From assembly GCA_026397335.1 (NCBI GenBank), contig JAPLVB010000006.1:1-46852 (forward strand): a stretch of 46,852 nt of DNA. The letters run 5' to 3'. Each line of letters starts with the position of its first letter. Positions within the stretch are counted from its first letter, which is position 1. Source of the DNA: Candidatus Aenigmatarchaeota archaeon. Its GTDB lineage: Archaea > Aenigmatarchaeota > Aenigmatarchaeia > QMZP01. This document shows positions 9,858-41,306 of the stretch, one piece after another. The position numbers and the translations under genes are program-made. The notes under the pieces are model-generated. The model worked only from the letters and a program-made list of their open reading frames with translations. It had not been told where the DNA came from and made no database searches.

Positions 9858-10492
9858 AATCACAGTGCATAAATGATTGTTGTGATAGAAGGTCTTATTC
9901 CGCAGGAAGTCGCAAAGCGACTTCATTCTCCAATCCACCTTCCATTAAACAATTGGAAAATAGGCCTAATCTGAAGGCGCAAAGCAGCATGCTCCTGATA
10001 ATAATTGTAATCATGATATTTGTAGGCATGGTTGTTTTCCTTCTGGGGATTGCAAGCACGGTAGGCGGAAATGAATTCACAGGCCTTTACGTGAACAACC
10101 TTTTGCTTTCTGTTATGAGGACGGATACAGGATATACGGATTCCAAGTGCAAGCTTGTTTCCGACCTTGTCTTTTGCGCATATTTCACGCCTGAATGGCA
10201 GTGCGCACAGGGTGTGCCCAACTGCCTCGAGCTGGCCAATAATACAATAACAAGGTACATGACAATCTTTGGAAACCAGACAAAGAGCATGAAATACCTT
10301 TTCACAGTAACTCCGGCATTTGTTGCGCGGGATGTTTCAGGCGAGCCAATAAGCCTTGACATGGGTGACAAAGCCCTCAAAAAATCCAAGGCAGAGAGCC
10401 TGAAAATTTATTCCCACCCTCTTGTTATAAGCAAGACTGTTGGTTCTAACCAGTACACCCTGAAAATCCAGCTCATAGTTTCAAAAAAGTAA
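9854..10492 (+). CDS. Class III signal peptide (pilin-like) protein with an unusually long, palindrome-encoded leader
   Basis: GGAGGT RBS and ATGA overlap with the upstream stop. About 40 aa of hydrophilic leader precede LKAQ-SSMLLIIIVIMIF. Confidence 0.7.
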   Translation: MKSQCINDCCDRRSYSAGSRKATSFSNPPSIKQLENRPNLKAQSSMLLIIIVIMIFVGMVVFLLGIASTVGGNEFTGLYVNNLLLSVMRTDTGYTDSKCKLVSDLVFCAYFTPEWQCAQGVPNCLELANNTITRYMTIFGNQTKSMKYLFTVTPAFVARDVSGEPISLDMGDKALKKSKAESLKIYSHPLVISKTVGSNQYTLKIQLIVSKK

Positions 10493-10548
10493 ACTGATAT
10501 TGCAGGAATTCCTCATATTATATATACCAACACTGACAAATATTTAGT

Positions 10549-12384
10549 ATGGCTAAAGGCCAGACTGAGATTGTTGTGGTTTTGGGGATTGTGATTGTTG
10601 CTATTGTTGTTATTCTATATGCCGTTCCAAATATTCTTCCTTCTGATGTGCCTGCGGGAATAAAGCCAAAATATGATGCTGTGAAAGCCTCTTTTGAGAG
10701 CCTTGTCATGGATGGCGCGCAAAATACCATTAGAAAGCTCTCTCTTTATGGTGGATATCTTGACAACTCCTCTTTCCAGATGGGTTCTGTGACTTTTCTT
10801 GGGAAGGAAGTCCCGTACTGGCAGTACAATGGCCAAGTGAAATACCCGAACGTGAAGGATAATTTCATCCAGGGCCTGAGGGATTACCTGGCAAATAACA
10901 AAGATACTGTTGCTGAAAGCCTGAAAATGAGCGGAGTTGCTTTGGGAGATCCGCAGGTCTCTGCAAATTTCCTGAACAATAAAATTGTGATAACTGTAAA
11001 CATGCCTGCCACAATAGACGGGTATAAGATATCCAAGCCGTATGCTGTTGAAGTTCAGACAAGACTGAATGAGATAGATGAGTTCGCAAAGGGGCTTGCA
11101 TCCTATGATGCGAGCAATAGGCCGTTCGAATACTATACACTCTCCTCAATGATGATAAGCCCTATAGAACAGGATGTGCACACAGTTCCGATGTTCATAT
11201 TCCTTACAGAATGTGGAGATTATGTCTTCAAGAGCTGGTGGGATTTGAAGCCTGCGATGGAGAATGTGATAAAGACCACGCTCGCCCAAACCTATATGCC
11301 GGGGAAAGCCCCCCTGAACACCATGATGAGTTCTGGTTCTCCCAAATACAGCCTTGTTCCTGTAAACGGGAAAAGATACGAGAGTCTCGATGTCGCCTTC
11401 CATCTGCCTGATGATTTCAGTCTCACGCAGGCGGACTTCCAGTTCTCTCCTGACCCCATAATGGTTACGTCCAAAATCATTCCCATGGTGGGTCAGTGTC
11501 AATCAGACCCAGTTTACGTGAACTATTATGTTTCCTATCCTGCGATAGTAAGGGTGAAGGACCCCCTTACCCAGAACGTCTTCCAGTTCGCCCTTCATGT
11601 TTTCATAAAGGACAACAAGCCAGGAGTCTGGACCGAATCAGGGTATGAAAGTGATGTCCAGAAGCAGATATGCTCCAACCCGCAGTGTGCGGCTGACATC
11701 TCCCTGAAAGACAGCACAGGTAAACCGGTTGACTTCGCTTCCATAACTTTCATGGGATGTGATCTGGGAAGGACAAATTCACAAGGAGTTTTAAGAGGGC
11801 CTGCCCCATGCGGCCTGGGCCCGCTCCAGATATACAAGCAGGGTTATGATGCTTACAGCAGGATGGAATCCTCAGACCGCCTGGCCGGCCTGACAATCTC
11901 GCTTGTGAAGACCCCTGCAATAAATGCACATTTCTATGAGGTGATAATCCAGAACCTTTCCCTTAACGGCAAATATGACATCTCGCAGAACGCGGTGAAC
12001 GTCATAGAAAGCGGCCATATTGTTTACATGAATTTCTATGACATGGCAAGCATCAAGTCTTACCAGATGGGCTACAATATGAGGGGCGGGCAGATTAATG
12101 GAATGCCTGCCGGGTATTATGTTATCGGAGGGACTTTGCTCTCCAAGGGCAATGAGCTTGGCGCATTCATTATCAATTATACATTATCCGAGGGTCTTGA
12201 CGGGAAGGACCTGTACATATATCTTCCAAACGAGCTTGGCTATCAAGGAATAACAGACACAGCCCAAAAGGCCGGTGCAACAGTCACCCTGACTAATGTG
12301 TTAATAAAATGCGGTCTCGGTCCGGTCTCTCTCTCGGAAATAAAGAACTTCAAAGGGTGTTCGGTGGGTTACAATGAAGTTTAA
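10549..12384 (+). CDS. Large class III signal peptide (pilin-like) protein, 611 aa
   Basis: MAKGQ-TEIVVVLGIVIVAIVVILY, followed by a long extracellular region with paired Cys. Confidence 0.75.
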   Translation: MAKGQTEIVVVLGIVIVAIVVILYAVPNILPSDVPAGIKPKYDAVKASFESLVMDGAQNTIRKLSLYGGYLDNSSFQMGSVTFLGKEVPYWQYNGQVKYPNVKDNFIQGLRDYLANNKDTVAESLKMSGVALGDPQVSANFLNNKIVITVNMPATIDGYKISKPYAVEVQTRLNEIDEFAKGLASYDASNRPFEYYTLSSMMISPIEQDVHTVPMFIFLTECGDYVFKSWWDLKPAMENVIKTTLAQTYMPGKAPLNTMMSSGSPKYSLVPVNGKRYESLDVAFHLPDDFSLTQADFQFSPDPIMVTSKIIPMVGQCQSDPVYVNYYVSYPAIVRVKDPLTQNVFQFALHVFIKDNKPGVWTESGYESDVQKQICSNPQCAADISLKDSTGKPVDFASITFMGCDLGRTNSQGVLRGPAPCGLGPLQIYKQGYDAYSRMESSDRLAGLTISLVKTPAINAHFYEVIIQNLSLNGKYDISQNAVNVIESGHIVYMNFYDMASIKSYQMGYNMRGGQINGMPAGYYVIGGTLLSKGNELGAFIINYTLSEGLDGKDLYIYLPNELGYQGITDTAQKAGATVTLTNVLIKCGLGPVSLSEIKNFKGCSVGYNEV

Positions 12385-20916: not shown

Positions 20917-21603
20917 ATGGAAACGCAAAAAATCATGAGAGGGGAGAAGGTTGTTATTCTGGCTGACCACAGGGAGATCGCCTCTAATGTGACAAGGCAC
21001 CTGAGGGAGCATGATGCGGACATCCGGGAGATCCAGCTAAAGGTCGGGGATTACATAGTTTCCGAGAGGGTGGCTGTGGAGAGGAAGAGTGTCCCGGATT
21101 TCCTGCAGTCCGTGATAGACCAGCGCCTTTTCAAGCAGATGGAGCAGCTTGCGGATTCTTACGAGAAGCCTGTGCTTATCCTTGAAGGGAACCCAGAGCT
21201 GCTTTTCCTGGAGAGGAACATGCACGCGAACACTGTGCGCGGGGTTCTCTCCTCAATAGCGATAGACTACAGAATCCCCATAATCTGGACACACAATTCA
21301 AAGGAGACAGCGGCCCAGATATACTGGATGGCCTACAGGGAGCAGGTCCAGGAGAGAAAGGGCCTGCAGATCCGCTGCAATAAAAGGAATCGCACCCTTG
21401 CACACCATCAGGAGTTCCTTGTGGCAGGCCTTCCCAATGTCTCGAATGTCTTGAGCAAAAGGCTGCTCAAGCATTTCGGAACTGTGCGGGATGTTTATGA
21501 TGCCACCCCGGAGGAGCTCATGAAAGTGGAGGGAATAGGGAAGGAAAAGGCCAAGAATGTATGGGAGCTCATAAATGCGGAATATCAGGAAAAAGAAGAT
21601 TAG
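20917..21603 (+). CDS. ERCC4/XPF nuclease with HhH2 domain (nuclease half of Hef)
   Basis: GDYIVS..VERKS catalytic motif; C-terminal HhH (LMKVEGIGKEKA). Confidence 0.9.
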   Translation: METQKIMRGEKVVILADHREIASNVTRHLREHDADIREIQLKVGDYIVSERVAVERKSVPDFLQSVIDQRLFKQMEQLADSYEKPVLILEGNPELLFLERNMHANTVRGVLSSIAIDYRIPIIWTHNSKETAAQIYWMAYREQVQERKGLQIRCNKRNRTLAHHQEFLVAGLPNVSNVLSKRLLKHFGTVRDVYDATPEELMKVEGIGKEKAKNVWELINAEYQEKED

Positions 21604-21635
21604 CTTGAAGTTCTAATGAACTTCTTTCCAGTGTT

Positions 21636-23339
21636 CTATTTCTTTAAGCAAGCCTCCAAGAATCCCCTGAAAAGGGGATGGGGATTTATCGGCCTGGAAG
21701 TGAGCTCAGGATGGAACTGTGTTCCCACGAAAAATCTCTTTCCGGGCAGCTCGAGAATCTGCATGATCTTTTTTTCAGGGGCGCGGCCTGAGAACACAAG
21801 ACCGTGCTTCTCAAGTGTTTCTATGTATTTGGGATTCACGTTCCACCTGTGGCGGAAGCGTTCCCTCGCGCTGTTCTTTCCGTAAAGCTTGTGAGCAAAA
21901 GTGTTTTTCTCTATACCCAGGTCAAATCCCCCGAGTCTCATGGTCCCTCCCAGACCCTTTATCTCCTCCTGTTCTGGAAGAATGAAAATCACAGGGTGGG
22001 GAGTCTCATCATCTATCTCAGTCGAATTCGCGCCTTTCAGGCCGCACACATTCCTTGAGAACTCTATCACAGCCATCTGGAACCCGAAACACAGACCAAA
22101 GAAAGGAATGTCATTCTCTCTCGCGTATCGAATGCACTCTATCTTTCCTTCGGTCCCCCTCTCCCCAAAGCCTCCTGGAACTATTATTCCATCTACCCCT
22201 TCCATCTTTTGTTTTACATTCTCCGGAGTGATGTGCGTGGCTTCTATCCATTGGATTTTGGGCCTGATCCCAAGATAGGGGGAGGTGTGCTCTATGGCTT
22301 TCAGTATGCTCAGGTAGGAATCATGCACGGATGTGTATTTCCCTACTATCCCGACTGTGACCTCCATGTTTGCTGAGTTTATTTTTTCCACAAGCTCCTT
22401 CCACTTATGGTATTCTGTCCTGTCGTTCCCGTCCCTTCTCGGGAGCTTAAGAATCTTTATTATCTCCTCGTCTATCCCTACATCCTGAAGGAAAATCGGG
22501 ATCTTGTAGATGTTATCAATATCATAGCAGTTTATCACCCTCTCAACAGGCACGTTCGAGTATATGCTTATCTTCTCTCGTATCTTCTCATTCACAGGAT
22601 TCTCGCTCCTGCATATTATTATGTCAGGCTGTATCCCTATTCCCATGAGCGTCTTGAGCCCTAGCTGGGCAGCCTTGCTCTTGTGCTCACCAAGTGAGCG
22701 CGGCTGGAGTATATATGTAACTGTTATGAAGCACACGTTCTCCTTTCCTTCCTCATAAGCCAGTTCCCTCATCGCCTCCAGGAAATAAGAATTCTCTATA
22801 TCTCCCACAGTCCCTCCGACCTCCACCATGATTATGTCTGCCTCTGATTTCACTGCCAGGTTTCTCAGAAAACTCTTTATCTCGCCTGTCACGTGCGGGA
22901 TGAACTGGACGTCACGACCGAGATATTTGCCCGCCCGCTCCTTGTCTATTATGGTCTTGAAAATCTTTCCAGAAGTAAGGTAATTGTCCTTCGAGAAGTT
23001 CGAGTTCATCATCCTCTCATAGGTTCCCAGGTCAAGGTCGCATTCCGTCCCGTCATCAAGGACAAAAACCTCCCCGTGCCTGAAGGGGTTGAGAGTGCCT
23101 GCATCATAATTCAGGTAACCGTCAAACTTAACAGGTGAGACCTTGTATCCATGGAACAGCTTGAGCAAGGTTCCTATGGAGGAGGAGAAAGTCCCTTTTC
23201 CCACTCCGGAAATAACAGTGCCTGTTATGACTATGAATTTTGTTTTCCCTTTCTCATAGCCCTTAGGAACGCTTGAAATGAACTCGCTGTCATCCGTTTT
23301 CTTGGATATGGTTTTGAACATCTCATGGGACTCTGGCAT
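21636..23339 (-). CDS. pyrG: CTP synthase
   Basis: GTVISGVGKG, HGEVFVLDDG, GLCFGFQ and QFHPE motifs. Confidence 0.97.
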   Translation of the reverse strand: MPESHEMFKTISKKTDDSEFISSVPKGYEKGKTKFIVITGTVISGVGKGTFSSSIGTLLKLFHGYKVSPVKFDGYLNYDAGTLNPFRHGEVFVLDDGTECDLDLGTYERMMNSNFSKDNYLTSGKIFKTIIDKERAGKYLGRDVQFIPHVTGEIKSFLRNLAVKSEADIIMVEVGGTVGDIENSYFLEAMRELAYEEGKENVCFITVTYILQPRSLGEHKSKAAQLGLKTLMGIGIQPDIIICRSENPVNEKIREKISIYSNVPVERVINCYDIDNIYKIPIFLQDVGIDEEIIKILKLPRRDGNDRTEYHKWKELVEKINSANMEVTVGIVGKYTSVHDSYLSILKAIEHTSPYLGIRPKIQWIEATHITPENVKQKMEGVDGIIVPGGFGERGTEGKIECIRYARENDIPFFGLCFGFQMAVIEFSRNVCGLKGANSTEIDDETPHPVIFILPEQEEIKGLGGTMRLGGFDLGIEKNTFAHKLYGKNSARERFRHRWNVNPKYIETLEKHGLVFSGRAPEKKIMQILELPGKRFFVGTQFHPELTSRPINPHPLFRGFLEACLKK

Positions 23340-24194: not shown

Positions 24195-24291
24195 AGTGAC
24201 CTTGGAATGAAGTTGGCTTTGCCAACTTCCAACTGATTCCTTTTTATTATTGTCAGAATTCGTATAAATTATACGGGCAATAAGTGGTCTT

Positions 24292-25812
24292 ATGAATTAT
24301 GTGAAACATCCCCTGATAGTTGAGAATTCAATAGAGTCTAGGGCTTACCAGGAGGCAATACTGGGGACTGCTGCAAAAAACCACACCCTGTGCGTATTGC
24401 CCACAGGGCTTGGCAAGACAAATATCGCCATAATGCTTGCCGCGCACAGGCTGGAAAAATATCCGGATTCCAGGATTATTGTGATGGCTCCGACAAGGCC
24501 CCTTGTGAACCAGCATTATAAAACCTTTGTCAGAAGTCTGAAAATTCCCGTGGAGGATATGGTGGCGGTTACGGGATTCATAAAGCCTGAGGAGAGGGAG
24601 CGGCTTTACGGGAAAAAACTCCTGTTCGCAACCCCCCAGGTAATTGAGAACGACCTGAAGTCAGGAATCCTTTCCCTCGAGCGTGTCTCGCTTCTTGTCA
24701 TAGATGAGGCCCACCATTCCGTAGGAGGGTATGCTTATCCGTTTGTGGCAAAAACTTATCTGGAGCAGGCTCGCTTCCCAAGAATTCTCGCGCTTACAGC
24801 ATCCCCGGGAGGGACAACAGAAAAGATACAGGAGATAAAAAACAATCTGGGAATAAATGCAGTTGAAATCCGGACTGATGAGGACCATGATGTGAGGCCC
24901 TGGATAAAAGAGAAGCAGATAGACTGGATTTATGTGGAGCTGCCTGAGAGCTTTCTGCGCATTAAGCGGTATCTTGATGAGGCGATAGAAGACAGGGCTG
25001 GAAAACTCAAGTCCATGGGCTTTCTGAAAAAACACAAACCCTCTAAACGCGACTTCCTAGAGCTGCAGGCAAAAATGCAGGCCTCCATAAGCAGGGGTCA
25101 TAAGGCTGCTTTTGGGATTTCTTCAATAGTGGCCCAGGTCATAAAGCTGGAGCATGCGCTGGATCTTCTGGAAACCCAGGGAATAACAATGCTGGAAAAA
25201 TATTGGAAAAGACTTAAGGAGGACACAACCAAGGCTGCAAAAACCATCCTGAAGGACCAGAGGGTCGCGAATGCCATGTTCCTATCCAGAGAACTGTTTG
25301 AAAGCGGCTCCAAGCACCCGAAAATGGGGAAGCTCTGTCAGATAGTGGACAGGCAATTCCGAGAGAAAGACTCAAAAATCATAATTTTTGCTAACTACCG
25401 TGAGTCTGTAAAGGAGATAGTCTCGAGCTTGAAGAATATAGAGGGGGTTAGGCCTGTGGAGTTCGTGGGCCAGAAAGAAGGTCTCACCCAGAAGGAGCAG
25501 ATAGCCCGTTTGTCTGACTTCAGGGACGGAGTGTATAACGTGCTTGTGGGGACAAGCGTCTCGGAGGAGGGGCTGGACATACCGGCAATGGATCTGGCCA
25601 TTTTCTATGAGCCGGTTCCCTCGGAGATACGCTCAATCCAGAGGCGCGGCCGGGTGGGCAGGCAGAAAGTCGGAAGGGTTATCTTTCTCATAACAAGAAG
25701 GACCCGGGACGAAGCGTACTTCTGGAGCGCCCATAACAAGGAAAAAAGGATGCACAAGACGTTGTATGGAATGAAGTCGGCAAAGCCGACTTCCAGCCAG
25801 ACATCAGAATGA
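24292..25812 (+). CDS. Hef/FANCM-family SF2 helicase (helicase half only)
   Basis: LPTGLGKT, DEAHH, TASPG, EEGLDIP and QRRGRVGR motifs; ends without an ERCC4 domain. Confidence 0.92.
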   Translation: MNYVKHPLIVENSIESRAYQEAILGTAAKNHTLCVLPTGLGKTNIAIMLAAHRLEKYPDSRIIVMAPTRPLVNQHYKTFVRSLKIPVEDMVAVTGFIKPEERERLYGKKLLFATPQVIENDLKSGILSLERVSLLVIDEAHHSVGGYAYPFVAKTYLEQARFPRILALTASPGGTTEKIQEIKNNLGINAVEIRTDEDHDVRPWIKEKQIDWIYVELPESFLRIKRYLDEAIEDRAGKLKSMGFLKKHKPSKRDFLELQAKMQASISRGHKAAFGISSIVAQVIKLEHALDLLETQGITMLEKYWKRLKEDTTKAAKTILKDQRVANAMFLSRELFESGSKHPKMGKLCQIVDRQFREKDSKIIIFANYRESVKEIVSSLKNIEGVRPVEFVGQKEGLTQKEQIARLSDFRDGVYNVLVGTSVSEEGLDIPAMDLAIFYEPVPSEIRSIQRRGRVGRQKVGRVIFLITRRTRDEAYFWSAHNKEKRMHKTLYGMKSAKPTSSQTSE

Positions 25813-25910
25813 AGGCGGAACGGGAGTGAGAAGGCGTCAAGAGACGCCTTCAATCGAAATTCCGCCTTCCAGCCAAGAACTGGGATGAGAAGGAAGCAGA
25901 GTCTTGAGAG

Positions 25911-27250: not shown

Positions 27251-27431
27251 TTTTAAGCATAACTTTAAATACTTTTACCATTAGATAGTAATCCTTTTTA
27301 AAGCTAATGTTTTTGCCCGGTATTTTCCTATGAATAAAAGAAGAGGGAGGATGTCAACCTTCATTCTTGATTGAAGGTGGATGCTTGATTGACAGCCTTC
27401 GGCTGTCGTTCTTCAGTTCCGCCTTCTCTCT

Positions 27432-29251: not shown

Positions 29252-29570
29252 CTGCCGTTCTCACTATAAGGGACGTTAGTTTGAAGTCCGAATGGACTTC
29301 TTTCCAACTGAGAGTGAAGTAGCAGGGTCTGCTTCCTTCCAAATGTGAGATTGACGGCTTGAATAGATTGATTCAAGCCGTCTTTCGGACGTGAGATTGA
29401 AAGTGTCCGCGGGCACTTTCCACTGCTGGAAAATCATTTCCGGCCGTGTGCGCAGGTCTTATAAGGCCGCCAAGCGCCGCGAACGAAAGACGGAAGGCGC
29501 AAGCGCCTTCAATCGAAAATCGCGGAGGCAGCGTAAAGTTGGACGTGGCGAAGCCGCGTCTTTCCAAGCG
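29252..29570 (+). repeat. Array of at least six GAAG/GAC palindromic hairpins; candidate structured ncRNA
   Basis: Hairpins at 29283-300, 29316-339, 29353-382, 29399-420, 29493-510 and 29542-560; GTGAGATTGA twice and TCTTTCCAA twice. Confidence 0.7.
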
Positions 29571-30067: not shown

Positions 30068-30122
30068 TCAACTCTCACCCTTATGATTTTAATTGGAAGG
30101 TGGCTCTTGCCACCTTCTATCT

Positions 30123-30701
30123 CTAAATCCTCTTTCCGCTTTCCATTCTGGGGACGAATACCCGGTACCTGTCTTTGTCGTTCAGTTCGTCCATTATTCT
30201 TTTTACAACCATTTTCTCCGGATCCGGAAGCAAAGGGGTTCTCTTCTTGAGGTCCGCAAAACTCTCGAAAGGCTTGTTTTTCCTGTCCTCTATTATTGCC
30301 CAGAGGTGGCGCTTCCCTATCCCTGGAAGAAGCTCGAGCTGGTGCATCCGTGTGGTGAGCTGCCCTGATTTATTAAAAAATTCCAGGAACTTCTGCGGAT
30401 TTTCCTTTACTATCTTCTCTACAGCAGGCTGAACCTCATCCTTTGCAGCTGTCGTGAGCTCACTGAATTCCATCCTTCCCCTTATGTATTTCACCTTGTC
30501 CCTCTTCCCGTCGCCTATGTAGACTCTTTCACCTATATTCAGGTTCGAGCCTTCCCTCACTATCACTTCCAGCAGGGAGAAATACAGGTCTCCCATTACC
30601 TGGGCAACAGGCTGTGACCTGTCCATGCTGTAACGCCCGTGGGAAAGGTAATCGAGCGTGACTGCCCATTCATCTTTCTTAAGCTTCTCTTTTGGAATCA
30701 T
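30123..30701 (-). CDS. DUF655 family putative nucleic-acid-binding protein
   Basis: LTTRMHQLELLPGIGK, PFESFADL; conserved position downstream of rpo4. Confidence 0.9.
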   Translation of the reverse strand: MIPKEKLKKDEWAVTLDYLSHGRYSMDRSQPVAQVMGDLYFSLLEVIVREGSNLNIGERVYIGDGKRDKVKYIRGRMEFSELTTAAKDEVQPAVEKIVKENPQKFLEFFNKSGQLTTRMHQLELLPGIGKRHLWAIIEDRKNKPFESFADLKKRTPLLPDPEKMVVKRIMDELNDKDRYRVFVPRMESGKRI

Positions 30702-31085: not shown

Positions 31086-31113
31086 AAAATCACGGAATCA
31101 ATTAAACAATTAT

Positions 31114-32684: not shown

Positions 32685-32737
32685 GGGTATAATTTCGGGT
32701 TATGGGAATATAAACAATTTTCAGTGTGCAACGCCTA

Positions 32738-33388
32738 TTATTTTTTTCCCATCCCGTCAATGATTTGCGTTACGATGCCGTAAACGCTTTTCATATCTTT
32801 TGCGATTTCCTGAACTGCTTCAAGCCTGTCAGCCTCTCCCAACAAATAAGTCGTGGCTGCTTCAGTATAATTGGGATAACCGTATCTCCAATCCATAAAT
32901 CCCTCATCTGTTGCGAAAATCTGCTTCTTTATATCATAACATTTTTTCAGGATTTGTTTTCCGTGAAACTTCAGATTCAGAAAGAATGGTGTTGTAACGC
33001 CTTCCTTGAACATTTCGTAGAAAGGCATGGTAGACCAAGCGCCATACAGGGTGAGGTATCCCCCGAAGTGATCGGGTATTGTCTCATTATGAAAAAAGAA
33101 ATTGTATCCTTCAACAGGCATGTCATAATAGCCGCAAGTCATTGTATTTTGATTTTCTCTTGCTTCAAGATATTTCCTGATTTTTTCAGGGTCCTTCCTT
33201 TCCAGCACACCAAGCAGATTGTCCATTGCCCTGATTTCTCGCGGAATCCATCGATATTTTTCTTCTTTACCAATCCACTCCTTGAGTTTTCCATATTGTT
33301 CCAGAAGCTCTTCTTCGGAAAATCTCCTGAGATAAAGTTCATCAAATGCCTTTATAGTTTCGCCAAGCCCGTTCATGTTTACCAACAT
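32738..33388 (-). CDS. Hypothetical protein
   Basis: 216-aa ORF, co-oriented and closely spaced with its neighbours. Confidence 0.6.
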   Translation of the reverse strand: MLVNMNGLGETIKAFDELYLRRFSEEELLEQYGKLKEWIGKEEKYRWIPREIRAMDNLLGVLERKDPEKIRKYLEARENQNTMTCGYYDMPVEGYNFFFHNETIPDHFGGYLTLYGAWSTMPFYEMFKEGVTTPFFLNLKFHGKQILKKCYDIKKQIFATDEGFMDWRYGYPNYTEAATTYLLGEADRLEAVQEIAKDMKSVYGIVTQIIDGMGKK

Positions 33389-33393
33389 TAGAA

Positions 33394-34740
33394 TTAAGCT
33401 ACTGTATCTTGCTGCTCCTCTTTCGCATCCTCAGGAACCACTATGCTCACCTTCTTCCCGCTGGTCTTGTAGATTATGTCCTCTAACTCTTGTTTCTGCC
33501 TCTCCATCTCCTTCCTTATGTTCTCCTTGTCCTTGGCAGAGGCGCCAAGTATCTTCTCAAGCGAGGCTATCTCCTCAAGAGACCGCTTTATGTTGTTCTC
33601 CAGATGACTCTTTCTCTCGACAACCCATTCATAGCGGTTCCTGTCCCTCTCCAGGTCCTTCAGCTCGTCTTCAAGCTCCTGGAAACCGATCTTGAGTTCC
33701 TTTATGTCACTATCAAGCCTTGAGATTATCTCGTCTGTCCTTTCCCTCTCTTTGTCCTTAAGGACTATTCTTTCCTCCATGCTTGCCTTTCTCACAAGAA
33801 GCAGCACATCTTTGAGCCTGTTCTCCTCATTCTTTTCAAGCGTCTCGAAAGGCCTGTTTATTATCCCGTCAAGTATGAGCTCCTGCTCCTTGATTATGGG
33901 GTAGTTCTTGCTCACTAGATATTCCAGCTTCTTAAGCGGCCTCTGTACTGAAGCGAATTCCTCCGTGACCTTTTCCTTTATTGCGGATGACTTCTTCCTG
34001 TTCTTTTCAATCTGCTCCACTATCTTGTTATACTCTGCATACTCGTGGCCTTTGATAATTTCCTCTATCTCGGCAAGATTCTTTTCAGTTCTGTTCCTCA
34101 GCTCCCTTATGCGCACCTCTATCCCGCTCTCCTCTTTCTCAACAGTGGTGAGCCTGAGCTTGAGCATGGACTGCTGCTCCTTCTTGGAATTTATGCTGTG
34201 CGCGAGCTGGATGGTCTCGCCCTCGCTCTCAAGGAACTCCTTAAGGACAGAAAGCCTCTCCTGCGTATCTTTTATGTTATCTATCACGCCCGAACTCTCC
34301 TTTCCAAAATAAGTGGAAAGCAGGTATGCCTGCTTGGGGGTTATGCTGCTCATATCGCCAAGCGCGTCCCCCGCGCTCTCCTGGAACTCATTCAGGACCT
34401 TCACGTCTATGGGCCTTCCTTGGAAACCCTGCACTGTATTCACAAGGTTATGTACCCTCTTGACGAAAAGGTCCTTGGTCATGTTCACAACCGCGCCTAT
34501 TTTCTCATCGCTCTCGAACTTTGCAGTCTCAAGCAAATCCGCAGAATCCTTTATTCTCGCGAACCCTTTCATCACTTCAGAATAGAGCTCATTCGCTTTC
34601 TCGTGCCTGTCCTTTATCTTTCCTGCCAGAGTCTGGTTTATCCAGTCATGCACCTCGTCTATGTGCACTTCAGTAGGAGCTGCTTCCTCAGGAGGCTTTT
34701 CCTTCTCCTTCTTCCTTTTGAAGAAATCGCGTATTCCCAT
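33394..34740 (-). CDS. Long coiled-coil hypothetical protein
   Basis: E/K-rich heptad composition; likely start MGIRDFFKRKK at 34740. Confidence 0.75.
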   Translation of the reverse strand: MGIRDFFKRKKEKEKPPEEAAPTEVHIDEVHDWINQTLAGKIKDRHEKANELYSEVMKGFARIKDSADLLETAKFESDEKIGAVVNMTKDLFVKRVHNLVNTVQGFQGRPIDVKVLNEFQESAGDALGDMSSITPKQAYLLSTYFGKESSGVIDNIKDTQERLSVLKEFLESEGETIQLAHSINSKKEQQSMLKLRLTTVEKEESGIEVRIRELRNRTEKNLAEIEEIIKGHEYAEYNKIVEQIEKNRKKSSAIKEKVTEEFASVQRPLKKLEYLVSKNYPIIKEQELILDGIINRPFETLEKNEENRLKDVLLLVRKASMEERIVLKDKERERTDEIISRLDSDIKELKIGFQELEDELKDLERDRNRYEWVVERKSHLENNIKRSLEEIASLEKILGASAKDKENIRKEMERQKQELEDIIYKTSGKKVSIVVPEDAKEEQQDTVA

Positions 34741-34941
34741 AGCATTCGCCCTGCAACACCTAACTATCAAATCCGTTAAGGCGGAGAAGTTGGAACTTCA
34801 ATTGAAGTTGCTTTGCAACTTCCTTCTTTAGTTGCCAACTTCGAACTAACTTTCGCCTTGTTTAGAATATGGCAGAAAGACATTTATTCGGATGCAAGGC
34901 TTTTTTCCAAGCTTTATATCAAGCCAGACCGAATAATAATC

Positions 34942-36096
34942 ATGAAATCCACGCTGCTGGACGGCAATGCTGCGGCTGCATGGGGCGGACGGCTCGCGAG
35001 AGCCCAGGTGGTTCCAAACTTTCCTGTAACTCCCCAGACAGAGCTGATAGAGAAGTTTGCTGAATGGAAGGCCAAGGGTGAATGGAAGGGTGAGTTCCTT
35101 CCGATGGAATCTGAGCATAGTGTCCTGTCTGCTGCAATAGCTGCTTCTGTCACAGGGGCGAGAGTTTTCAGCGGCAGCTCCTCCCAGGGCCTCATGCTCA
35201 TGCACGAGATGGTTTATGTGGCCTCCGGGATGAGGGTTCCTGTTGTGATGATTAATGTCTCGCGCGCTTTATCAGCCCCCATCACACTCTGGCCGGATCA
35301 TAATGACATACTTGACCAAAGGGATTCAGGCTGGCTTATCTTCTTCTGCGAGAACAACCAGGAGGTTCTGGACACTGTAATACAGGCATACAAGATTTGC
35401 GAGGATGAGCGCGTTCTTTTGCCTGCGTTTGTGAACATGGAAGGGTTCGTGCTTTCCTATACAAGGGAGCCTACGGAGATACCCGAACAGAAAGCTGTCG
35501 ACCGCTTCCTTCCCAAGTACAAACCAAAAGTCTTTCTTGACCCGAAGAAGCCAATGGCTATAGGGATAGGAGTGATGAAGGAGTATCCTTACTTCCGGAG
35601 CCAGGTTTATCTGGCGCAGAAAAATGCAATGAAGGTTATACAGGAAGTCCACAGGGACTGGAAAAAGAAGTTCGGAAGGGAATACGGGTTTGTGGAAAAG
35701 TTCATGATGGAAGGCGCCCAGATCGCTCTTGTGAGTATGGGAGCGAACAGCTCAATCGCGAAAGCTGCTGTGAAAAGCCTGCGCTCAAAAGGGATTCTTA
35801 TCGGTCTCGTGAGAATAAGGGTGTACAGGCCTTTTCCCAAAGAGGAGATCAGGAAATCCCTCCAGGGGGTGGAGGCTGTTGGTGTTATAGACCAGAACCT
35901 TTCACCCGGATATGGGGGGATTGTATATCCTGAGATAAGGGATGTCCTTTACGACAGGAAAATCCCTGTGAGCGACTTCATAGTGGGGCTGGGAGGCAAG
36001 CAGATATCACAGCAGGAGTTCGAGCAGTTCGGGATGGAAGTGCTTAAATCCGTAAAAACCAAAAAAGACGTGATTCTTTGGCAGGCTGTGGACTGA
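34942..36096 (+). CDS. porA: Pyruvate/2-oxoacid:ferredoxin oxidoreductase alpha subunit
   Basis: LDGNAAAA, FPVTPQTE, ESEHS, SSQGLMLMHE and RPFP motifs; ATG at 34942. Confidence 0.92.
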   Translation: MKSTLLDGNAAAAWGGRLARAQVVPNFPVTPQTELIEKFAEWKAKGEWKGEFLPMESEHSVLSAAIAASVTGARVFSGSSSQGLMLMHEMVYVASGMRVPVVMINVSRALSAPITLWPDHNDILDQRDSGWLIFFCENNQEVLDTVIQAYKICEDERVLLPAFVNMEGFVLSYTREPTEIPEQKAVDRFLPKYKPKVFLDPKKPMAIGIGVMKEYPYFRSQVYLAQKNAMKVIQEVHRDWKKKFGREYGFVEKFMMEGAQIALVSMGANSSIAKAAVKSLRSKGILIGLVRIRVYRPFPKEEIRKSLQGVEAVGVIDQNLSPGYGGIVYPEIRDVLYDRKIPVSDFIVGLGGKQISQQEFEQFGMEVLKSVKTKKDVILWQAVD

Positions 36097-36137
36097 CGGT
36101 TTGAATAGATAGAAGCGTGGCCATGGCCTTATGGCGC

Positions 36138-36328
36138 TTATTTCATAAGTCTCAGGAATTCCTTCCTTTCCATCCTCAAATCCTTCTTTATGATTTTGTT
36201 CAGCAGGCCTCTGCATATTTCTTCTCCAGGATGGTTTGGTATAACTGTTGTCATCCGGGGATTCCAACCACCTCTGATATGAACCACCCGTCTTCATCCT
36301 GTTCTATGATGACGTTGAATGTTTCCAT
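36138..36328 (-). pseudogene. Collapsed hicB-hicA toxin-antitoxin remnant (HicB N-terminus 36328-36251 joined to HicA C-terminus 36254-36138)
   Basis: METFNVIIEQDEDGWFISEVVGIPG* is HicB-like; TTVIPNHPGEEICRGLLNKIIKKDLRMERKEFLRLMK* is HicA-like. Confidence 0.75.
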
Positions 36329-36395
36329 ATTTTATGGTTATGTCCGCTATTTATAAAGTAATGGTATAAAAAAGTAAAGCATGCGGAGTGGTTAT

Positions 36396-37271
36396 ATGAA
36401 GTACATAGTTACCGGCGGATGCGGGTTCATAGGAAGCAACCTTGTGAAGAGGCTTTCAAGAGACGGGAATGAAGTGGTTGTTATAGATAATCTTTCCACG
36501 GGGGCTGTTTCCAACCTTCCCGGAAAATTCACTGTTCTCAAAAAAATTTCAGAGATAAAAAAGGCGGACGACGCGGACGGGATATTCCATCTCGGAATCC
36601 CCTCTTCCACGCCCTTGTACAGGAATGACCGCTCCCTTGTAGGGAAGACCATAGCTGAATTCATAGATATTATGGAATACGCGAAAGAGAATAAGATCAG
36701 GATTGTTTATGCTTCCTCTTCTTCCGTCTATAACGGCAACAAGACCCCCTACAAGGAGGACATGCCCATTCTCGCGACAGACTTCTACACAGAAGCGCGA
36801 TACGCGATTGAGAGGCTGGCAAAGGTTTACTGGGATTTTTACAAAGTCCGCTCTGTCGGACTGCGCATGTTCAGCGTTTACGGGGAGAATGAAAAAAGCA
36901 AGGGGAGGTACGCGAATCTTGTTTCGCAGATAATATGGGCCAAGCGCGAGGGAACGAGATTTGACGTTTATAACAAGGGAGAGGCTGTAAGGGATTTCAT
37001 ACACGTATCGGATGTCGTGGAGGCTTACATAAAGGCCATGAACTCTGCACTGAACTGCGAGATTCTCAATATCGGCACTGGAAAAGCATATACAATAAAC
37101 CAGATCATGCAGGCTGTTGGCCTCAAGAACTACAGGTATGTGGAAAATCCCCTAAAAAACTATGTGGACAAGACCCTCGCTGACACAAGAAAGGCTGAGA
37201 GGCTTCTTGGCTTTGAGCCTAAAACAGACCTGATGGAATACCTGAAGAGATTTGGGAGTGAAGGCGCCTGA
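36396..37271 (+). CDS. NAD-dependent epimerase/dehydratase (extended SDR)
   Basis: TGGCGFIG, ASSSSVY, YTEAR (YxxxK variant), RDFIHVSD. Confidence 0.9.
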   Translation: MKYIVTGGCGFIGSNLVKRLSRDGNEVVVIDNLSTGAVSNLPGKFTVLKKISEIKKADDADGIFHLGIPSSTPLYRNDRSLVGKTIAEFIDIMEYAKENKIRIVYASSSSVYNGNKTPYKEDMPILATDFYTEARYAIERLAKVYWDFYKVRSVGLRMFSVYGENEKSKGRYANLVSQIIWAKREGTRFDVYNKGEAVRDFIHVSDVVEAYIKAMNSALNCEILNIGTGKAYTINQIMQAVGLKNYRYVENPLKNYVDKTLADTRKAERLLGFEPKTDLMEYLKRFGSEGA

Positions 37272-37305
37272 TGGCACCTTCCAACTAATTGCTATTTTTA
37301 ATATG

Positions 37306-37395
37306 TTAGGGCTTTATTCCAGGTATGGGCAGGTAAAGCCCTATGATGTAGCCTATTATGATTCCTATTATGAATGCGATTAGTGCCTTATTCAT
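37306..37395 (-). CDS. 29-aa single-TM small protein (not in the ORF track)
   Basis: AAGGAG RBS, then MNKALIAFIIGIIIGYIIGLYLPIPGIKP-TAA. Confidence 0.6.
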   Translation of the reverse strand: MNKALIAFIIGIIIGYIIGLYLPIPGIKP

Positions 37396-37447
37396 GATAT
37401 AACTCCTTATTTGATTAACGAAAGAAGGCGGAACATAAAATCCGCCT

Positions 37448-37933
37448 TCATTCTAATATCAGCGGCTGGGAAGCCTTCATTATCTTTATGCTGTCCTCTA
37501 TCTCCTGGATTTTTTCTATCAGAGGATCTATGTCAAACCCCTTGAAGTTGGTTTCGAGCCACTGGCTCTTGAGCTTCAGGCTCTCTATATCCTTGGTCAG
37601 GGATTTCATGTTCATCCTTTTCATCTCCTCCTCCAAGGATATTATCCTGCCTATGTCCTCTTTCAGGAATTTCACTTCGGCTTCCATCCTGTCAACCGCG
37701 TGCCTGTTCTTCTCCAGGTTCTCCTTCACCTCTTTGCTGAGGTTCTGGAATTCCCTGTAGAAATCGTTTTCCAGCGTCTGGATATTGGTCTGTGAAAGTG
37801 TTGAACGCTTGAGATTCTCGATTTCTATCTGCATGTCCCTTATTTCTCTGAGAATAGCAAGCTCCTTTTCGCTGGGTCTAAGATTTTCCTTGGGGGTTTG
37901 TTTTTTGGGAGCTGGAGGGATTTTCCTAGCCAT
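37448..37933 (-). CDS. Coiled-coil hypothetical protein
   Basis: 161-aa heptad-rich ORF. Confidence 0.7.
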   Translation of the reverse strand: MARKIPPAPKKQTPKENLRPSEKELAILREIRDMQIEIENLKRSTLSQTNIQTLENDFYREFQNLSKEVKENLEKNRHAVDRMEAEVKFLKEDIGRIISLEEEMKRMNMKSLTKDIESLKLKSQWLETNFKGFDIDPLIEKIQEIEDSIKIMKASQPLILE

Positions 37934-37979
37934 GAATATAATATGGGGAAACCCATTAAAATAATCTGGTGATCCAGCT

Positions 37980-38450
37980 TCAAAATTCCTGTGTCAGAAT
38001 GAATGTACTGCAAACCCCGTTATGAATTTTTATCTCCGTGGGTGTGCCTGCCAGATTTTCGGTTATGTTGGCCTCTATTACAGCAGACTGCCCTGGCTTG
38101 AGAGGGTTGTCCGGGGTTATCCCGTTCTTTGCAGGGAAGAACTTGTACCCCGCACCTTGGATATAAATCTGGAAGGAGAAGCTGTGCAGGTTTATCTGAC
38201 CTGTGTTCATTATTTTGGCTTTTAGCCACTCACTGGACCCTGAGAAATCCCAGTCCACCCCTGAATTGCCGAATGAGGAATCAAAATCATATGCTGTGCT
38301 CTGGCATGTAATCTGGTTGTCCGCATTTCCTCCTGTATTATTCACTTGCCTGCCCGCAAAGTTTATTGCCCAGGGTCCCACAAGCCCTGCTATCACGACT
38401 ATTAACCCTATCACGATTATTGTTGACAGCAGGACTGATACAGCTTTCAT
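37980..38450 (-). CDS. Archaeal type IV pilin-like protein
   Basis: MKA-VSVLLSTIIVIGLIVVIAGLV class III signal; NTGQINL and LKPGQ pilin-like motifs. Confidence 0.8.
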   Translation of the reverse strand: MKAVSVLLSTIIVIGLIVVIAGLVGPWAINFAGRQVNNTGGNADNQITCQSTAYDFDSSFGNSGVDWDFSGSSEWLKAKIMNTGQINLHSFSFQIYIQGAGYKFFPAKNGITPDNPLKPGQSAVIEANITENLAGTPTEIKIHNGVCSTFILTQEF

Positions 38451-39160
38451 GCCTGACTCCCTTCTATTGTAAGGAAATCTGCTCCTGATTCCAAGGTAAA
38501 GTTGAGGAAATAGTTCGCATAGCTCGAGCTCATGTATGCGGAAACTGTTGCATATGGCAAATCTGTCCCGGATTCCTCCATGACTGAATAACCTGTTCCT
38601 GATTTTGAGCTGTCTGAGTTGTCAAGATTCAGCTCCAGGGACTGGAAAGGCATCCACTGGTTAAGGTCTTTCTGATATATTGCAAGCAGCAGCTGGTTTG
38701 TATTATACGCTTGGGGACTGGAGGGTGAGCCTATCTTACGGAAGTATGCTCTCACATGCTCGTTCTCAACTATGTAGGCAGGAGTTCCTTGATAATCACC
38801 CTCATATGCGCTTGTCTCTAGTTTCGAGCCTAAAACCACGTTCCCGAAGCCTGTACTAGTTCTTGGGGAAGTAATCATGGTTTCAGAGTCAAAATCCCAG
38901 TAGAGTTTGTCTGAACTGCCATTCAGGGTGAGGGTGCCTATGTCAAACCTGAGATTAACAGTCCTTTTTGAGCCATTCCCCTCAGAAGCCACATCCTCCA
39001 CTATCTTGTCCATTTCGGAAAAGACGCCCTTCATCTTCTCCACAGCCGCAGCATGCTGCATCCTCAAAACCACAGGCATGCCCGCATTATAGACTATCAC
39101 GGTCACTGCAAGCGTCAGGCCTATAAAAATGACTGCTGATATAAGGGCGATGGCTTTCAT
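38447..39160 (-). CDS. Class III signal peptide (pilin-like) protein
   Basis: MKA-IALISAVIFIGLTLAVTVIVY; ATGA coupling to the next pilin. Confidence 0.7.
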   Translation of the reverse strand: MKAIALISAVIFIGLTLAVTVIVYNAGMPVVLRMQHAAAVEKMKGVFSEMDKIVEDVASEGNGSKRTVNLRFDIGTLTLNGSSDKLYWDFDSETMITSPRTSTGFGNVVLGSKLETSAYEGDYQGTPAYIVENEHVRAYFRKIGSPSSPQAYNTNQLLLAIYQKDLNQWMPFQSLELNLDNSDSSKSGTGYSVMEESGTDLPYATVSAYMSSSYANYFLNFTLESGADFLTIEGSQA

Positions 39161-39292
39161 GAATATTATGTTGGTTATCTTGGTTAATATGAATATACTC
39201 TCACCAAATTAAGAAAGAGCGACTTGTCACCTTCACTCAAGATTTAAACCAATTATTTATTATAAGTATGAAAAATATAGGTGTGCTTTGAC

Positions 39293-40240
39293 ATGAAAAT
39301 CTCAAGATTTTTCCCCTTAGTCGGAATAGCTATTTTTGCCTACTTGTTACTGAATATTGACATTGGGAAAATGCTGCAAATACTTTCAAGAGCGAATATC
39401 GGTTTGATTCTAACAATGATAACCCTTACCACTGTTACTGTTTTGCTAAAAGCCTACAAATGGGAAGTGCTTGTCCATCTGTATGACAGGAGCTATCCAC
39501 TTAAGGATTCTGCAAAGGCATGGACTATGGGATTTTCCTTAAGCTTGGTAACACCAGGGAGGCTTGGTGACTTGTCAAGGGCTTATTATGTCAAGGATAG
39601 GATAGGAATGGGCAAAGGCTTGACAACCGTCATAATCGATAGGGTCATAGATATAGCGATACTTTTTAGCCTCGCCATATTGGGATTCCTGAGCTTTGTG
39701 ACATTTTTCACAGAATATTCCAACTTATTTTTGACGGTTTCCGTATTGTTTGTTATTTTCATTCTGGCTGTCGTCGTTTTTACAAAAAAGAAATTAATGA
39801 AAATGATTTTCAAACCGGTCTTCTATAAGATTGCCCCGAAGAAACACAGGTCAACTATTAAAATGACTTTTGATGAATTTTATACAGGGCTTGACTCTGT
39901 CAAAAAGGGGAAAAGGAATGTGATCCTGTCAATTATGATAGGCGTTCTGGTTTGGATTATATCCATAATCCAATATTACCTGCTGGCGATGGCTATAAGT
40001 CTTAGCGTTCCTTTCCTGTTTTTACTTTCTATTATGCCCATAATCTCCCTCCTTGACATGCTTCCTATATCCTTTTCTGGAATAGGAACGAGGGACGCTG
40101 CCATGATATTGTTTTTCTCCTTCATTTCCATAGGTAAGGAGTATGCGATTTCCCTTTCGCTTCTGATCCTGCTCTTTGGATACTTTATGATAGGTCTTGT
40201 AGGAGCGGCCTTCCTGCTGAGGGGAGGAAGAAGTAAATGA
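39293..40240 (+). CDS. Flippase-like multi-TM protein (UPF0104/AglD2-like)
   Basis: TPGRLGDLSRAY, DRVID and PISFSGIGTRD motifs; many TM helices. Confidence 0.85.
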   Translation: MKISRFFPLVGIAIFAYLLLNIDIGKMLQILSRANIGLILTMITLTTVTVLLKAYKWEVLVHLYDRSYPLKDSAKAWTMGFSLSLVTPGRLGDLSRAYYVKDRIGMGKGLTTVIIDRVIDIAILFSLAILGFLSFVTFFTEYSNLFLTVSVLFVIFILAVVVFTKKKLMKMIFKPVFYKIAPKKHRSTIKMTFDEFYTGLDSVKKGKRNVILSIMIGVLVWIISIIQYYLLAMAISLSVPFLFLLSIMPIISLLDMLPISFSGIGTRDAAMILFFSFISIGKEYAISLSLLILLFGYFMIGLVGAAFLLRGGRSK

Positions 40241-40257
40241 TTAATAATTAAAAGCAG

Positions 40258-41181
40258 ATGACCAATAAGTCAAAAGGTGAAATATTGAAAATATCGGTTA
40301 TTATACCCACACTGAACGAGGAGTCCACGATTGCTAGGGTAATAAGGGACTTCAAGAAAAACAGGAAGGTCTCTGAAATAATTGTTTATGACGGGAACTC
40401 ATCAGACAAAACAAGGGAACTTGCAAGGAAAGCTGGCGCAAAGGTATACGTTCAGGATGGAAAGGGAAAGGGGCTCGCCATAAGGGAGATATTCGAAAGG
40501 ATAGACACAGACATCTATGTTCTTGTTGACGGGGATGACACATATCCGGCTGAAAGGCTGGACGACCTTCTGAAACCGGTTTTGGAAAAGAAAGCGGATA
40601 TGGTAATAGGTACTAGGATAAACAAAATGAGCGAGAAGGGCTCCTTGACAAGGCTCCACAGGTTCGGGAACAGGACAATATCCAAGACCATTGGGTTTTG
40701 CTTCGGGAACAAACTGAATGATGTGCTTTCAGGCTATAGGGTTATAAACAGGAAGCTGGTAAAGAACATTGCCCTTACCTCAAGCGGATTCGAAATCGAG
40801 ACGGAGCTTACGATAAAGAGCCTCATAGGAAACTACAGGCTTAAGGAAATGCCAATCAAATACAGGAAACGCCGAGGAGAAAGTAAAAGCAAGCTGAGCT
40901 CCTTTGGGGACGGGTATCTCATCTTTTACACCATCTTTTCCATGTTCAAGGATTACAGGCCGCTTCTCTTCTTTTCCATATTGTCAATGGTGTTTGGTTT
41001 GATGGGCATCTTTTGGGGTTACGTTGTCCTGGATGAATGGTTCAGGACAGGCCTTATAACAAAGATTCCGACAGTAGTATTGTCCGCCTTGATGGTTTTT
41101 TTGAGCGTTCAATTGTTCACGATAGGAATAATACTCGATGCCATAAACAAAGGATATAGAAGGGTCAAAAACGTATTGTAA
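40258..41181 (+). CDS. GT2 glycosyltransferase (DPM1/AglJ-like) with two C-terminal TMs
   Basis: VIIPTLNEE, DGNSSD, VDGDDTY, GFEIETE. Confidence 0.9.
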   Translation: MTNKSKGEILKISVIIPTLNEESTIARVIRDFKKNRKVSEIIVYDGNSSDKTRELARKAGAKVYVQDGKGKGLAIREIFERIDTDIYVLVDGDDTYPAERLDDLLKPVLEKKADMVIGTRINKMSEKGSLTRLHRFGNRTISKTIGFCFGNKLNDVLSGYRVINRKLVKNIALTSSGFEIETELTIKSLIGNYRLKEMPIKYRKRRGESKSKLSSFGDGYLIFYTIFSMFKDYRPLLFFSILSMVFGLMGIFWGYVVLDEWFRTGLITKIPTVVLSALMVFLSVQLFTIGIILDAINKGYRRVKNVL

Positions 41182-41306
41182 TTTAATCTGGAGCAACCAA
41201 ATAAACTGCATAACGGTGCTTCAGAGCTGTGAGTCGACCTTAGAAAGAAGTTGCGAAACAACTTCAATCCATCGTATGCTTTTATTTAGTTGACTCACAT
41301 TAAAAA

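Follow-up and report, generated by a model that had tools for sequence, protein, structure and literature searches.

GAAG hairpins of an Aenigmatarchaeota genus: a lineage-specific repeat family that is probably mobile DNA targeted to hairpin loops

The stretch of DNA analysed here, called the window, is 46,852 nucleotides long and is contig C46 (JAPLVB010000006.1) of G000, a 1.05-Mb genome of a Candidatus Aenigmatarchaeota archaeon that is assembled in 59 contigs and rated 92% complete. Its genes are archaeal and include those for TFB, a thermosome subunit, Pus10, a DUF655 protein, Hef/XPF and CTP synthase. Dispersed among them are copies of a short palindrome, the GAAG hairpin, which is the subject of this paper. 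The hairpin is built of GAAG, four to five variable base pairs, a loop of 3-4 nt and CTTC; its left flank ends in G-N-N-N and its right flank begins with N-N-T-C. The first-pass annotation of the window, made from the letters alone, had recorded about 20 such hairpins and read them as mobile palindromes like the repetitive extragenic palindromes (REP) or as an RNA processing or protein-binding signal. We followed the family through the window, the rest of G000, the four other species of the genus (one genome each: G001, G002, G003 and G004) and further genomes of the order.

The motif family is real, as its frequency shows. The pattern GAAG-N8-30-CTTC-NNTC had 27 matches on the two strands of the window; shuffled windows gave 4.00 ± 2.11 (maximum 10), and none of 100 shuffles reached 27. 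A covariance model trained on 30 copies from the window and its relatives found 13 loci in the window at E<1e-3 (11 of these 13 belonged to the training set) and three weaker ones (39205, 29869, 27379), spanning 9894-41277. If two variant hairpins and the outer shells of the nests are counted too, the earlier figure of about 20 was fair, and the six hairpins that had been named as examples are in place at 9906, 24209, 25773, 30096, 25830 and 21607. Across the genome of G000 there are 228 hairpins of the form GAAG-stem-loop-stem-CTTC with at least three inner pairs, and 208 with at least four. The frequency is also above that of shuffled intergenic DNA: 108 hairpins lay wholly within 111,318 nt of intergenic sequence, and 100 dinucleotide shuffles gave 0.41 ± 0.65 (maximum 2). 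When all 256 four-base feet were compared, GAAG had 208 hairpins, the next unrelated foot 28 and the median foot 3.

The inner stem covaries, as had been claimed. In a test where sites were not selected on pairing, 59 of 131 GAAG-N13-CTTC sites and 68 of 150 GAAG-N14-CTTC sites had Watson-Crick pairs at all four of the outermost inner positions, and five control foot pairs gave 0-1 fully paired sites. The 30-copy alignment had a covariation score of 0.333 against 0.109 ± 0.017 after shuffling (0 of 500 as high) and 0.06-0.09 with slid partners, with GC/UA, CG/UA and four-way exchanges at three stem positions; because these copies were picked for pairing, this score is the weaker test and the N13/N14 site count the cleaner one. 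The spacing varies from 16 to 26 nt.

The flanks are partly fixed. Orientation of the 208 copies gave ATTTT(A/C)G(A/T)T(T/G) as the consensus to the left of GAAG and (T)TTCTAA as that to the right of CTTC. Position -4 is G in 176 copies, +3 is T in 183 and +4 is C in 186, which bears out the NNTC after CTTC and the AGTTG-like sequence before GAAG that were seen at first. The G at -4 is preceded by TTT(A/C), and it is able to pair with the C at +4 across a 3x3 internal loop. On the left, all-against-all similarity breaks off in steps at -4, -7, -11 and -18; on the right it does so at +4/+5 and around +19 to +25. From these steps and the sizes of the insertions described below we define the unit, about 40 nt in length, as 9 nt, then a 19-22 nt hairpin and then 9-10 nt. 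Window coordinates given below for units are those of the whole unit. The variant with a GAC/GTC foot, which had also been recorded, is a second family, GACGGCTT-N14-AAGCCGTC, with 23 copies in the genome and the same flanks (GANN...NNTC). Rfam had no match anywhere in the window at the gathering score.

A palindrome with fixed GAAG/CTTC half-sites and many intergenic copies might be bound as double-stranded DNA by a dimeric protein and so act as an operator or in the organisation of chromatin. The inner stem, however, varies yet stays complementary, and the spacing runs from 16 to 26 nt; a dimer that reads the duplex needs neither. The nesting and the 40-nt insertions described below likewise indicate gain of DNA and not conserved sites. 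We regard this explanation as very improbable.

The family is expanded in one genus. The strict pattern occurs at 107, 111, 13, 74 and 54 sites in G000, G001, G002, G003 and G004, respectively, and at none in 36 genomes from other genera of the family and order; the reversed control gave none. Scanning 91 genomes of the order with the covariance model, as the first-pass annotation had proposed, gave at least 69 matches each in G000, G001 and G003, 66 in G004 and 9 in G002. In the rest of the family there was one marginal match, in one of 42 genomes, and in other families there were 1-7 matches in all five genomes of family f4 and in 8 of the 23 of family f2. On inspection, these low-copy matches in f2 and f4 fell in two settings, the 3' side of 5S rRNA and tRNA T-loop introns; the latter were read by hand, and no tRNA finder confirmed tRNA genes there. 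In G080 and G082 the hairpin with the GAAG foot starts at the last base of the 5S rRNA, which was identified by Rfam. One short contig of family f2 (G086:C33:1-60) carries at its very start a nested composite typical of the genus, which could be a horizontal transfer or a mis-binned contig.

Within the genus, species differ in which sites are filled and which are empty. Comparison of filled with empty orthologous sites, another of the checks proposed at first, was anchored on the flanks and made with the four congeners: 23 of 65 partners had no hairpin and were 24-60 nt shorter. Alignments with a clean single gap gave 38-44 nt. Upstream of TFB, for example, G001 and G004 carry a hairpin, and G000, G002 and G003 have an empty site. 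The filled/empty junctions have short microhomologies of 3-8 nt with differing sequence (GAATGAAG, CCTT, ATT), which may be chance.

The copies of the window show these states one by one. The unit at 9894..9936 (+ strand; hairpin 9906-9924, GAAG-TCGC-AAA-GCGA-CTTC; E 3.8e-7) lies in a variable spacer between two conserved blocks; G004 has an empty site at the orthologous place, and in G001 and G003 the site differs. The unit at 21595..21636 (+; hairpin 21607-21624; E 1.5e-7) is in the 32-nt convergent spacer between the Hef/XPF and CTP synthase genes, with the Hef/XPF stop TAG (21601-21603) inside its 5' flank. The unit at 24197..24241 (-; hairpin 24209-24229; found by the covariance model) separates the divergent starts of the ferredoxin and DEAD-box helicase genes; the site is filled in G000 and G003, and in G001 and G002 it is 43 nt shorter and has no hairpin. 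Within the 3' end of the helicase open reading frame (ORF) is the unit at 25761..25805 (-; hairpin 25773-25793; covariance model). It truncates the helicase, taking the place of the native C-terminal tail, and it is absent in G001, G002 and G003, whose helicase ORFs continue into a different tail. The helicase stop TGA (25810-25812) overlaps the outer foot of a nested composite of 59 nt at 25811..25869 (+), which has the outer stem GAAGGCGGA/TCCGCCTTC and the inner hairpin 25830-25851 (inner unit E 1.4e-10). Between the TFB and thermosome genes, 27340..27400 is a degenerate pair of arms bearing the feet, to which no strand is assigned (weak model score, E 0.52).

Further along, the best model match of the window is the unit at 30084..30129 (+; hairpin 30096-30117; E 1.1e-10), between the DUF655 stop and the start of a CBS-protein gene; it is filled in G000 only, and G001 is 44 nt shorter and has no hairpin. 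The nested composite at 34786..34842 (+; covariance model) has the shell GAAGTTGG...CCAACTTC around the inner hairpin 34804-34822; outside it, ahead of the pyruvate:ferredoxin oxidoreductase gene and within the divergent spacer there, is one more shell, which is degenerate. At this site G001 and G004 are 57-87 nt shorter, and G003 has a different copy a few bases off. The unit at 37248..37293 (-; hairpin 37260-37281 with one mismatch; E 5.5e-9), which was outside the training set, holds the epimerase stop codon (37269-37271) inside its hairpin. An outer-type hairpin, GAAGGCGGA, an 8-nt loop and TCCGCCTTC (37424-37449), makes up the copy at 37412..37461 (-; covariance model). Its foot supplies a TGA stop for the ORF at 37448 in place of the native TAA; the site is filled in G000 only, G003 being 38 nt shorter with the TAA stop and G004 42 nt shorter. 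A weak candidate copy lies in a divergent spacer at 39205..39246 (-; E 0.0067), and the last unit, 41235..41277 (-; hairpin 41247-41265; E 2.9e-7), is in the convergent spacer between glycosyltransferase and radical-SAM genes. Placement at gene boundaries and overlap with the stop codons of Hef, the epimerase and the 37448 ORF are thus as first described. There is no copy in 1-9800 of the window. The large ORFs of 482-20521 (438, 479, 1094, 372, 256, 611, 1393, 254, 475 and 546 aa) have almost no Pfam matches, and an MG2 domain in the 1094-aa protein is the sole one in that run.

Copies are often placed inside one another. Among the GAAG...CTTC pairs with loops longer than 8 nt, 40 of 198 enclose a complete small hairpin. 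The loop lengths peak at 39, 40 and 41 nt (12, 10 and 7 cases), and any other length from 9 to 122 nt was seen 0-6 times; the peak is the length of one unit. Triple nests also occur. In the nested cases seen, the inner stem was not the same as the outer one. Because hairpin loops are a tiny part of the genome, this amounts to a strong preference for loops, unless some composites spread as whole units.

The gene for family B DNA polymerase (PolB, identified by Pfam) lets these steps be followed. It has no element in G002, G004 and G005. In G003 it holds one hairpin in frame, HAKEGGTAAFRQ, and in G000 a further 39 nt (13 codons) is present, also in frame, within the loop of a hairpin of the G003 type. 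The inner copy is the later arrival, since G003 holds the outer hairpin alone and G000 adds the 39 nt in its loop, and it came from elsewhere in the genome, since its stem differs from the outer one. Besides PolB, real genes that hold copies are those for an ATP-dependent DNA ligase and an NFACT protein. On the gene map of the genome, made of crude longest-ORF calls (1150 ORFs, 89.6% coding), 44 copies lie well inside ORFs, with frames 0, 1 and 2 used 17, 12 and 15 times; many of these ORFs are short and perhaps spurious.

The same map gave nearly equal copy densities in all types of spacer: 1.08 per kb in divergent, 1.12 in ++, 1.03 in -- and 1.19 in convergent spacers. In tandem spacers 40 of 59 copies, and in mid-ORF positions 33 of 44, had their T-rich strand antisense (73 of 103 overall). 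This is the wrong direction for terminators, and it may reflect avoidance of stop codons on the T-rich strand. The lack of U-tails that was noted at first also held: in a loose terminator scan four copies in 21500-41400 passed, none of them with a T-run. We rejected a reading as intrinsic terminators on these three grounds, the equal density in divergent spacers, the antisense T-rich side and the missing T-runs. An RNA-level fold of the sense strand, looked for through an asymmetry between G.U and A.C in copies with a single transition mismatch, found no support (G.U 11, A.C 21).

These data bear on the proposal that the hairpins have a function in RNA, whether as transcript 3' ends, for stability, in processing or in protein binding, and were recruited repeatedly because they are useful. 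Several window copies do stand just past stop codons (21607, 25830, 37260, 37424, 41247), the orientation in tandem spacers is biased 40 to 19, some copies are conserved across species, and in G080 and G082 the 5S rRNA is followed directly by such a hairpin. Against it, divergent spacers, which contain no transcript end, are populated just as densely; most copies have their T-rich side on the antisense strand, and their tails lack T-runs; the copy number is high in one genus only, with orthologous spacers occupied differently from species to species; and copies lie within the PolB, DNA ligase and NFACT genes. A general RNA signal is therefore unlikely, and we infer that the dispersed copies have no general regulatory role. 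The RNA half of the first interpretation is thus not supported for the dispersed copies, with their equal density, both orientations, no excess of G.U and in-frame positions; it keeps its place for the units in tRNA genes, where removal as an intron is required, and for the hairpin next to 5S rRNA in another family.

In G000, ARAGORN with long introns allowed lists 24 tRNAs, 20 of them with introns of 17-135 nt, and five of these 20 tRNAs hold a GAAG hairpin. The absence of many isoacceptors from this list suggests that interruptions hide a good number of tRNA genes from standard finders. The clearest case is the single tRNA-Ile(GAT) gene, whose 41-nt intron at 37/38 consists of 9 + 22 + 10 nt and is exactly one unit. 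An orthologous intron of one unit is present in G001 and G003, and G002 has a longer intron at the same place. In G004 the anticodon loop, CTGATAA, is uninterrupted, and the flanks are syntenic with those of G000. Other genera of the family gave 20 loci, 15 of them recognisable; the anticodon arm was uninterrupted in 11 of these 15 and interrupted by unrelated sequence in four. On this unrooted comparison, gain of the intron by insertion of the element would be the simpler history, because G004 and those 11 genes are uninterrupted; a loss in G004 would be the alternative. The junction, between CTGATA and ATCGAG, has no microhomology. For a functional tRNA-Ile(GAT) the element would have to be removed, and it presumably is removed as an intron. 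By hand reading, another unit lies in the D-loop of a tRNA-Ala(GGC) gene.

Two side observations concern tRNA-Ile. A T-loop intron is present in the tRNA-Ile(GAT) of G001, G002, G004 and G013, and the one in G013 contains a hairpin of the GACGGCTT...AAGCCG type, so that the sister family is also tied to tRNA introns, outside the genus. At about 1530-1800 of contig C11 of G000 a short tRNA-Ile segment is inverted relative to G003, G004 and G001, with both flanks collinear.

In the window itself, several hairpins cluster in front of what resembles part of a tRNA. Units lie at 29271..29312 (+; hairpin 29283-29300; E 1.3e-6), 29304..29347 (-; hairpin 29316-29335; E 8.8e-6) and 29481..29522 (-; hairpin 29493-29510; E 1.1e-8), a sister-family copy GACGGCTT-N14-AAGCCGTC with flanks GATT...TTTC at 29353..29382 (+), and a foot variant, GAAAG-TGTCC-GC-GGGCA-CTTTC, read directly from the letters, at 29399..29420 (+). 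The GAAAG foot also occurs upstream of TFB in G001. At 29575-29610 (+) follows a clear 3' part of a tRNA, with the T-arm GGGTTCGAATCCC, the acceptor strand CGAGCCC, the discriminator A and then a T-run. A matching 5' half (GGGCTCG...) is nowhere in the G000 assembly; at the syntenic place in G001 and G004 there is a tRNA 5' half, GGGCTCGTAGCTCAGTCGGTAGAGCGCC, 200-300 nt from the 3' part. ARAGORN with long introns and Rfam found no tRNA at the 29280-29610 locus in any of the five species. With permissive settings, the one thing that Rfam picked up in 29000-29800 was a tRNA-like 3' part below threshold, and at the loci syntenic to this region in G001 and G004 it found nothing. We abandoned the reconstruction of an interrupted gene at 29280-29610, since no complete gene results and the 5' half is missing in G000. 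The locus may be either a heavily interrupted or a split tRNA gene, with hairpin elements filling the gaps. In the middle of this tRNA-like region, a near-palindrome at 29455-29470, GGTCTTATAAGGCC, is conserved in G000, G001 and G004; if the 3' half is transcribed on its own, this may be the TATA box of its promoter. Four DNA runs were compared through their Logan contigs, which are short and of low depth: in three runs (X2-X4) about 30 other letters stand in place of 29476-29574, the stretch that holds the unit at 29481..29522, and no joint matched any single element.

The units in tRNA genes raise the alternative of a mobile archaeal intron, cut from any transcript, mRNAs included, by the tRNA splicing endonuclease and rejoined by RtcB, which would spread through the splicing machinery or by DNA-level copying between spliceable sites. 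The one-unit tRNA-Ile intron and the hairpins in five of the 24 tRNAs speak for it. So do the T-loops of family f2, which hold such hairpins with flanks ending in TCGAAAT; in the copy of G082, as read by hand, a 4-bp TTCG/CGAA helix stands between two 3-nt bulges, and a cut there would leave a TTCGAAT loop. In addition, about 40% of the dispersed copies have TTTCGAT beside the foot. The bare unit was nevertheless rejected by hand as a bulge-helix-bulge, because the lone consensus folds with a symmetric 3x3 internal loop, in which the bulges are opposite and not staggered. The best bulge-helix-bulge that we could read by hand in the pre-tRNA-Ile of G000 has one mismatch in the 4-bp helix, a poor fit. 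The copies in PolB keep the frame (39 nt, twice), which is needless if they are spliced, although the screen is biased and sees only copies that preserve an ORF, and the sense strand has no preference for G.U pairs (11 versus 21). We hold a general mobile intron to be improbable.

No transposase was found that could be linked with the elements. The search covered four transposase families, and the genomes are 78-92% complete. An association with Y1 HUH transposases, suggested for checking by the first-pass annotation, was rejected: Y1_Tnp (PF01797) had no match over the cut-off in the four high-copy genomes G000, G001, G003 and G004. It occurs only in the congener of lowest copy number, G002, with two genes over the cut-off and no element in the surrounding 6.5 kb. 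These two genes, of IS200/IS605 type, are within 2 kb of each other (G002:C37:5000-11500), and one has an in-frame TAG. None of the other three families (TnpB zinc ribbon, DDE_Tnp_1, rve) tracks copy number.

The family has much in common with REP/REPIN-RAYT systems. Both consist of short palindromes in many copies, most of them outside genes, in which a fixed motif adjoins a covarying stem; both are lineage-specific with variable occupancy, and a structure-specific single-strand mechanism is a natural model for both. REP palindromes carry a conserved tetranucleotide of the GTAG type at their 5' end. The GAAG family has no GTAG head; its flank is TTT(A/C)G(A/T)T(T/G), with only G at -4 and C at +4 strongly fixed. 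It also differs in having no RAYT gene (PF01797) in four of the five genus genomes, the genes of the fifth being unflanked by elements, in nesting in its own loops, sitting in frame in genes and forming tRNA introns, and in its archaeal host. The first label of REP-like mobile palindrome therefore holds for the behaviour of the family, which is dispersed, genus-restricted, covarying and present in filled and empty states; it does not hold for the RAYT or the GTAG head. A 2025 survey reports REP-like hairpins in bacteria and in some archaea (Euryarchaeota, Crenarchaeota) and does not mention RAYT (PMC12306157).

Rickettsia palindromic elements (RPE) are palindromes of reduced genomes that lie in frame in unrelated, even essential genes and are translated, with no transposase known according to a review; they are about 100-150 bp long and are described as encoding a conserved peptide (PMC10969869). 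The likeness is the in-frame insertion into protein genes, in the PolB series, DNA ligase and NFACT, where read-through is predicted from sequence. The GAAG unit differs in its size of about 40 nt, its use of all three frames, its nesting and its role as tRNA intron. MITEs (miniature transposable elements with inverted repeats), such as Correia/NEMIS and Sulfolobus SM1-4, are also non-autonomous, bounded by inverted repeats, multicopy and mostly intergenic, and the same review lists known archaeal MITEs (PMC10969869). In the GAAG family, however, no target-site duplication could be made out at the junctions, and the four transposase families searched gave no parent insertion sequence with matching ends; the element, at 40 nt, is far shorter, and the whole of it is one hairpin.

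The resemblance to archaeal bulge-helix-bulge introns, a unit in a stable-RNA gene that needs removal, concerns the tRNA copies only. The similar sequences of Thermoproteales tRNA introns have been read as a sign that introns transposed as DNA, through a mechanism described there as unknown (PMC4090602). That family (Fujishima et al. 2010) is, in that account, known only inside tRNA genes, whereas GAAG copies lie mostly outside them and have filled and empty states at one locus. In Caldiarchaeum, intron gain was linked to a recombinase-encoding element of 1.8 kb (PMC3293823). For the tRNA introns of Asgard archaea, a 2026 preprint tested copying, mobile elements and reverse transcription and gave no general arrival route (10.64898/2026.10.13.758758).

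Taken together, we think it likely that the GAAG hairpins are a lineage-specific, selfish, non-autonomous and loop-targeting mobile DNA repeat, which is like REP and RPE and a member of neither. Several points weigh against this. No target-site duplication is definable from the filled/empty alignments, and Y1_Tnp, the TnpB zinc ribbon, DDE_Tnp_1 and rve have no match over the cut-offs in G000, G001 and G003. Some orthologous copies are kept across species. Orientation is non-random, which a purely neutral element need not show. The stem of the tRNA-Ile intron has a compensatory change between G000 and G003, which means selection on the fold in at least this intron. The outer stems of nested copies end in GGA...TCC and those of common single copies in GGC...GCC, so some composites may spread whole and not by nesting. 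The gene calls are also crude.

The preferred landing places of new units are single-stranded hairpin loops, among them those of older copies, the anticodon loop of tRNA-Ile and, by hand reading, the D-loop of tRNA-Ala. Copies persist where the harm is small: in spacers of every type, at gene ends, to which they can give a new stop, and as in-frame inserts of 13 residues. What keeps those in tRNA genes may be that the splicing endonuclease is able to excise them as introns. A structure-specific enzyme acting in trans would read the single strand in its folded form, by way of the fixed foot and the G...C flank; the stem would then stay paired while drifting, and the second family would share the flanks. 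This enzyme probably lies outside the four transposase families tested.

The absence of a recognisable transposase implies an unknown mobilising activity. Dispersed palindromes like REP or RPE appear to be new for DPANN-type archaea: no repeat family of this kind is described there in the titles and abstracts of the literature searched, a coverage that leaves subscription journals outside. Two features go beyond REP and RPE, the self-nesting and the formation of a complete tRNA intron from one unit. Loop targeting gives self-nesting palindromes, and in the essential gene PolB the steps can be traced through the empty, single and nested states. How tRNA introns arrive in archaea is an acknowledged open question. 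It is possible, and we put it forward tentatively, that the GAAG unit is a donor of archaeal tRNA introns, a free-living, loop-seeking cassette of 40 nt with introns as a by-product of its spread. The family may then descend from hairpins of stable RNAs (T-loop introns, the 3' flank of 5S rRNA), and its mobilisation may depend on the machinery for splicing and ligation or on an undescribed nuclease that is specific for hairpins. For this question the GAAG family offers a candidate donor together with polymorphic sites.

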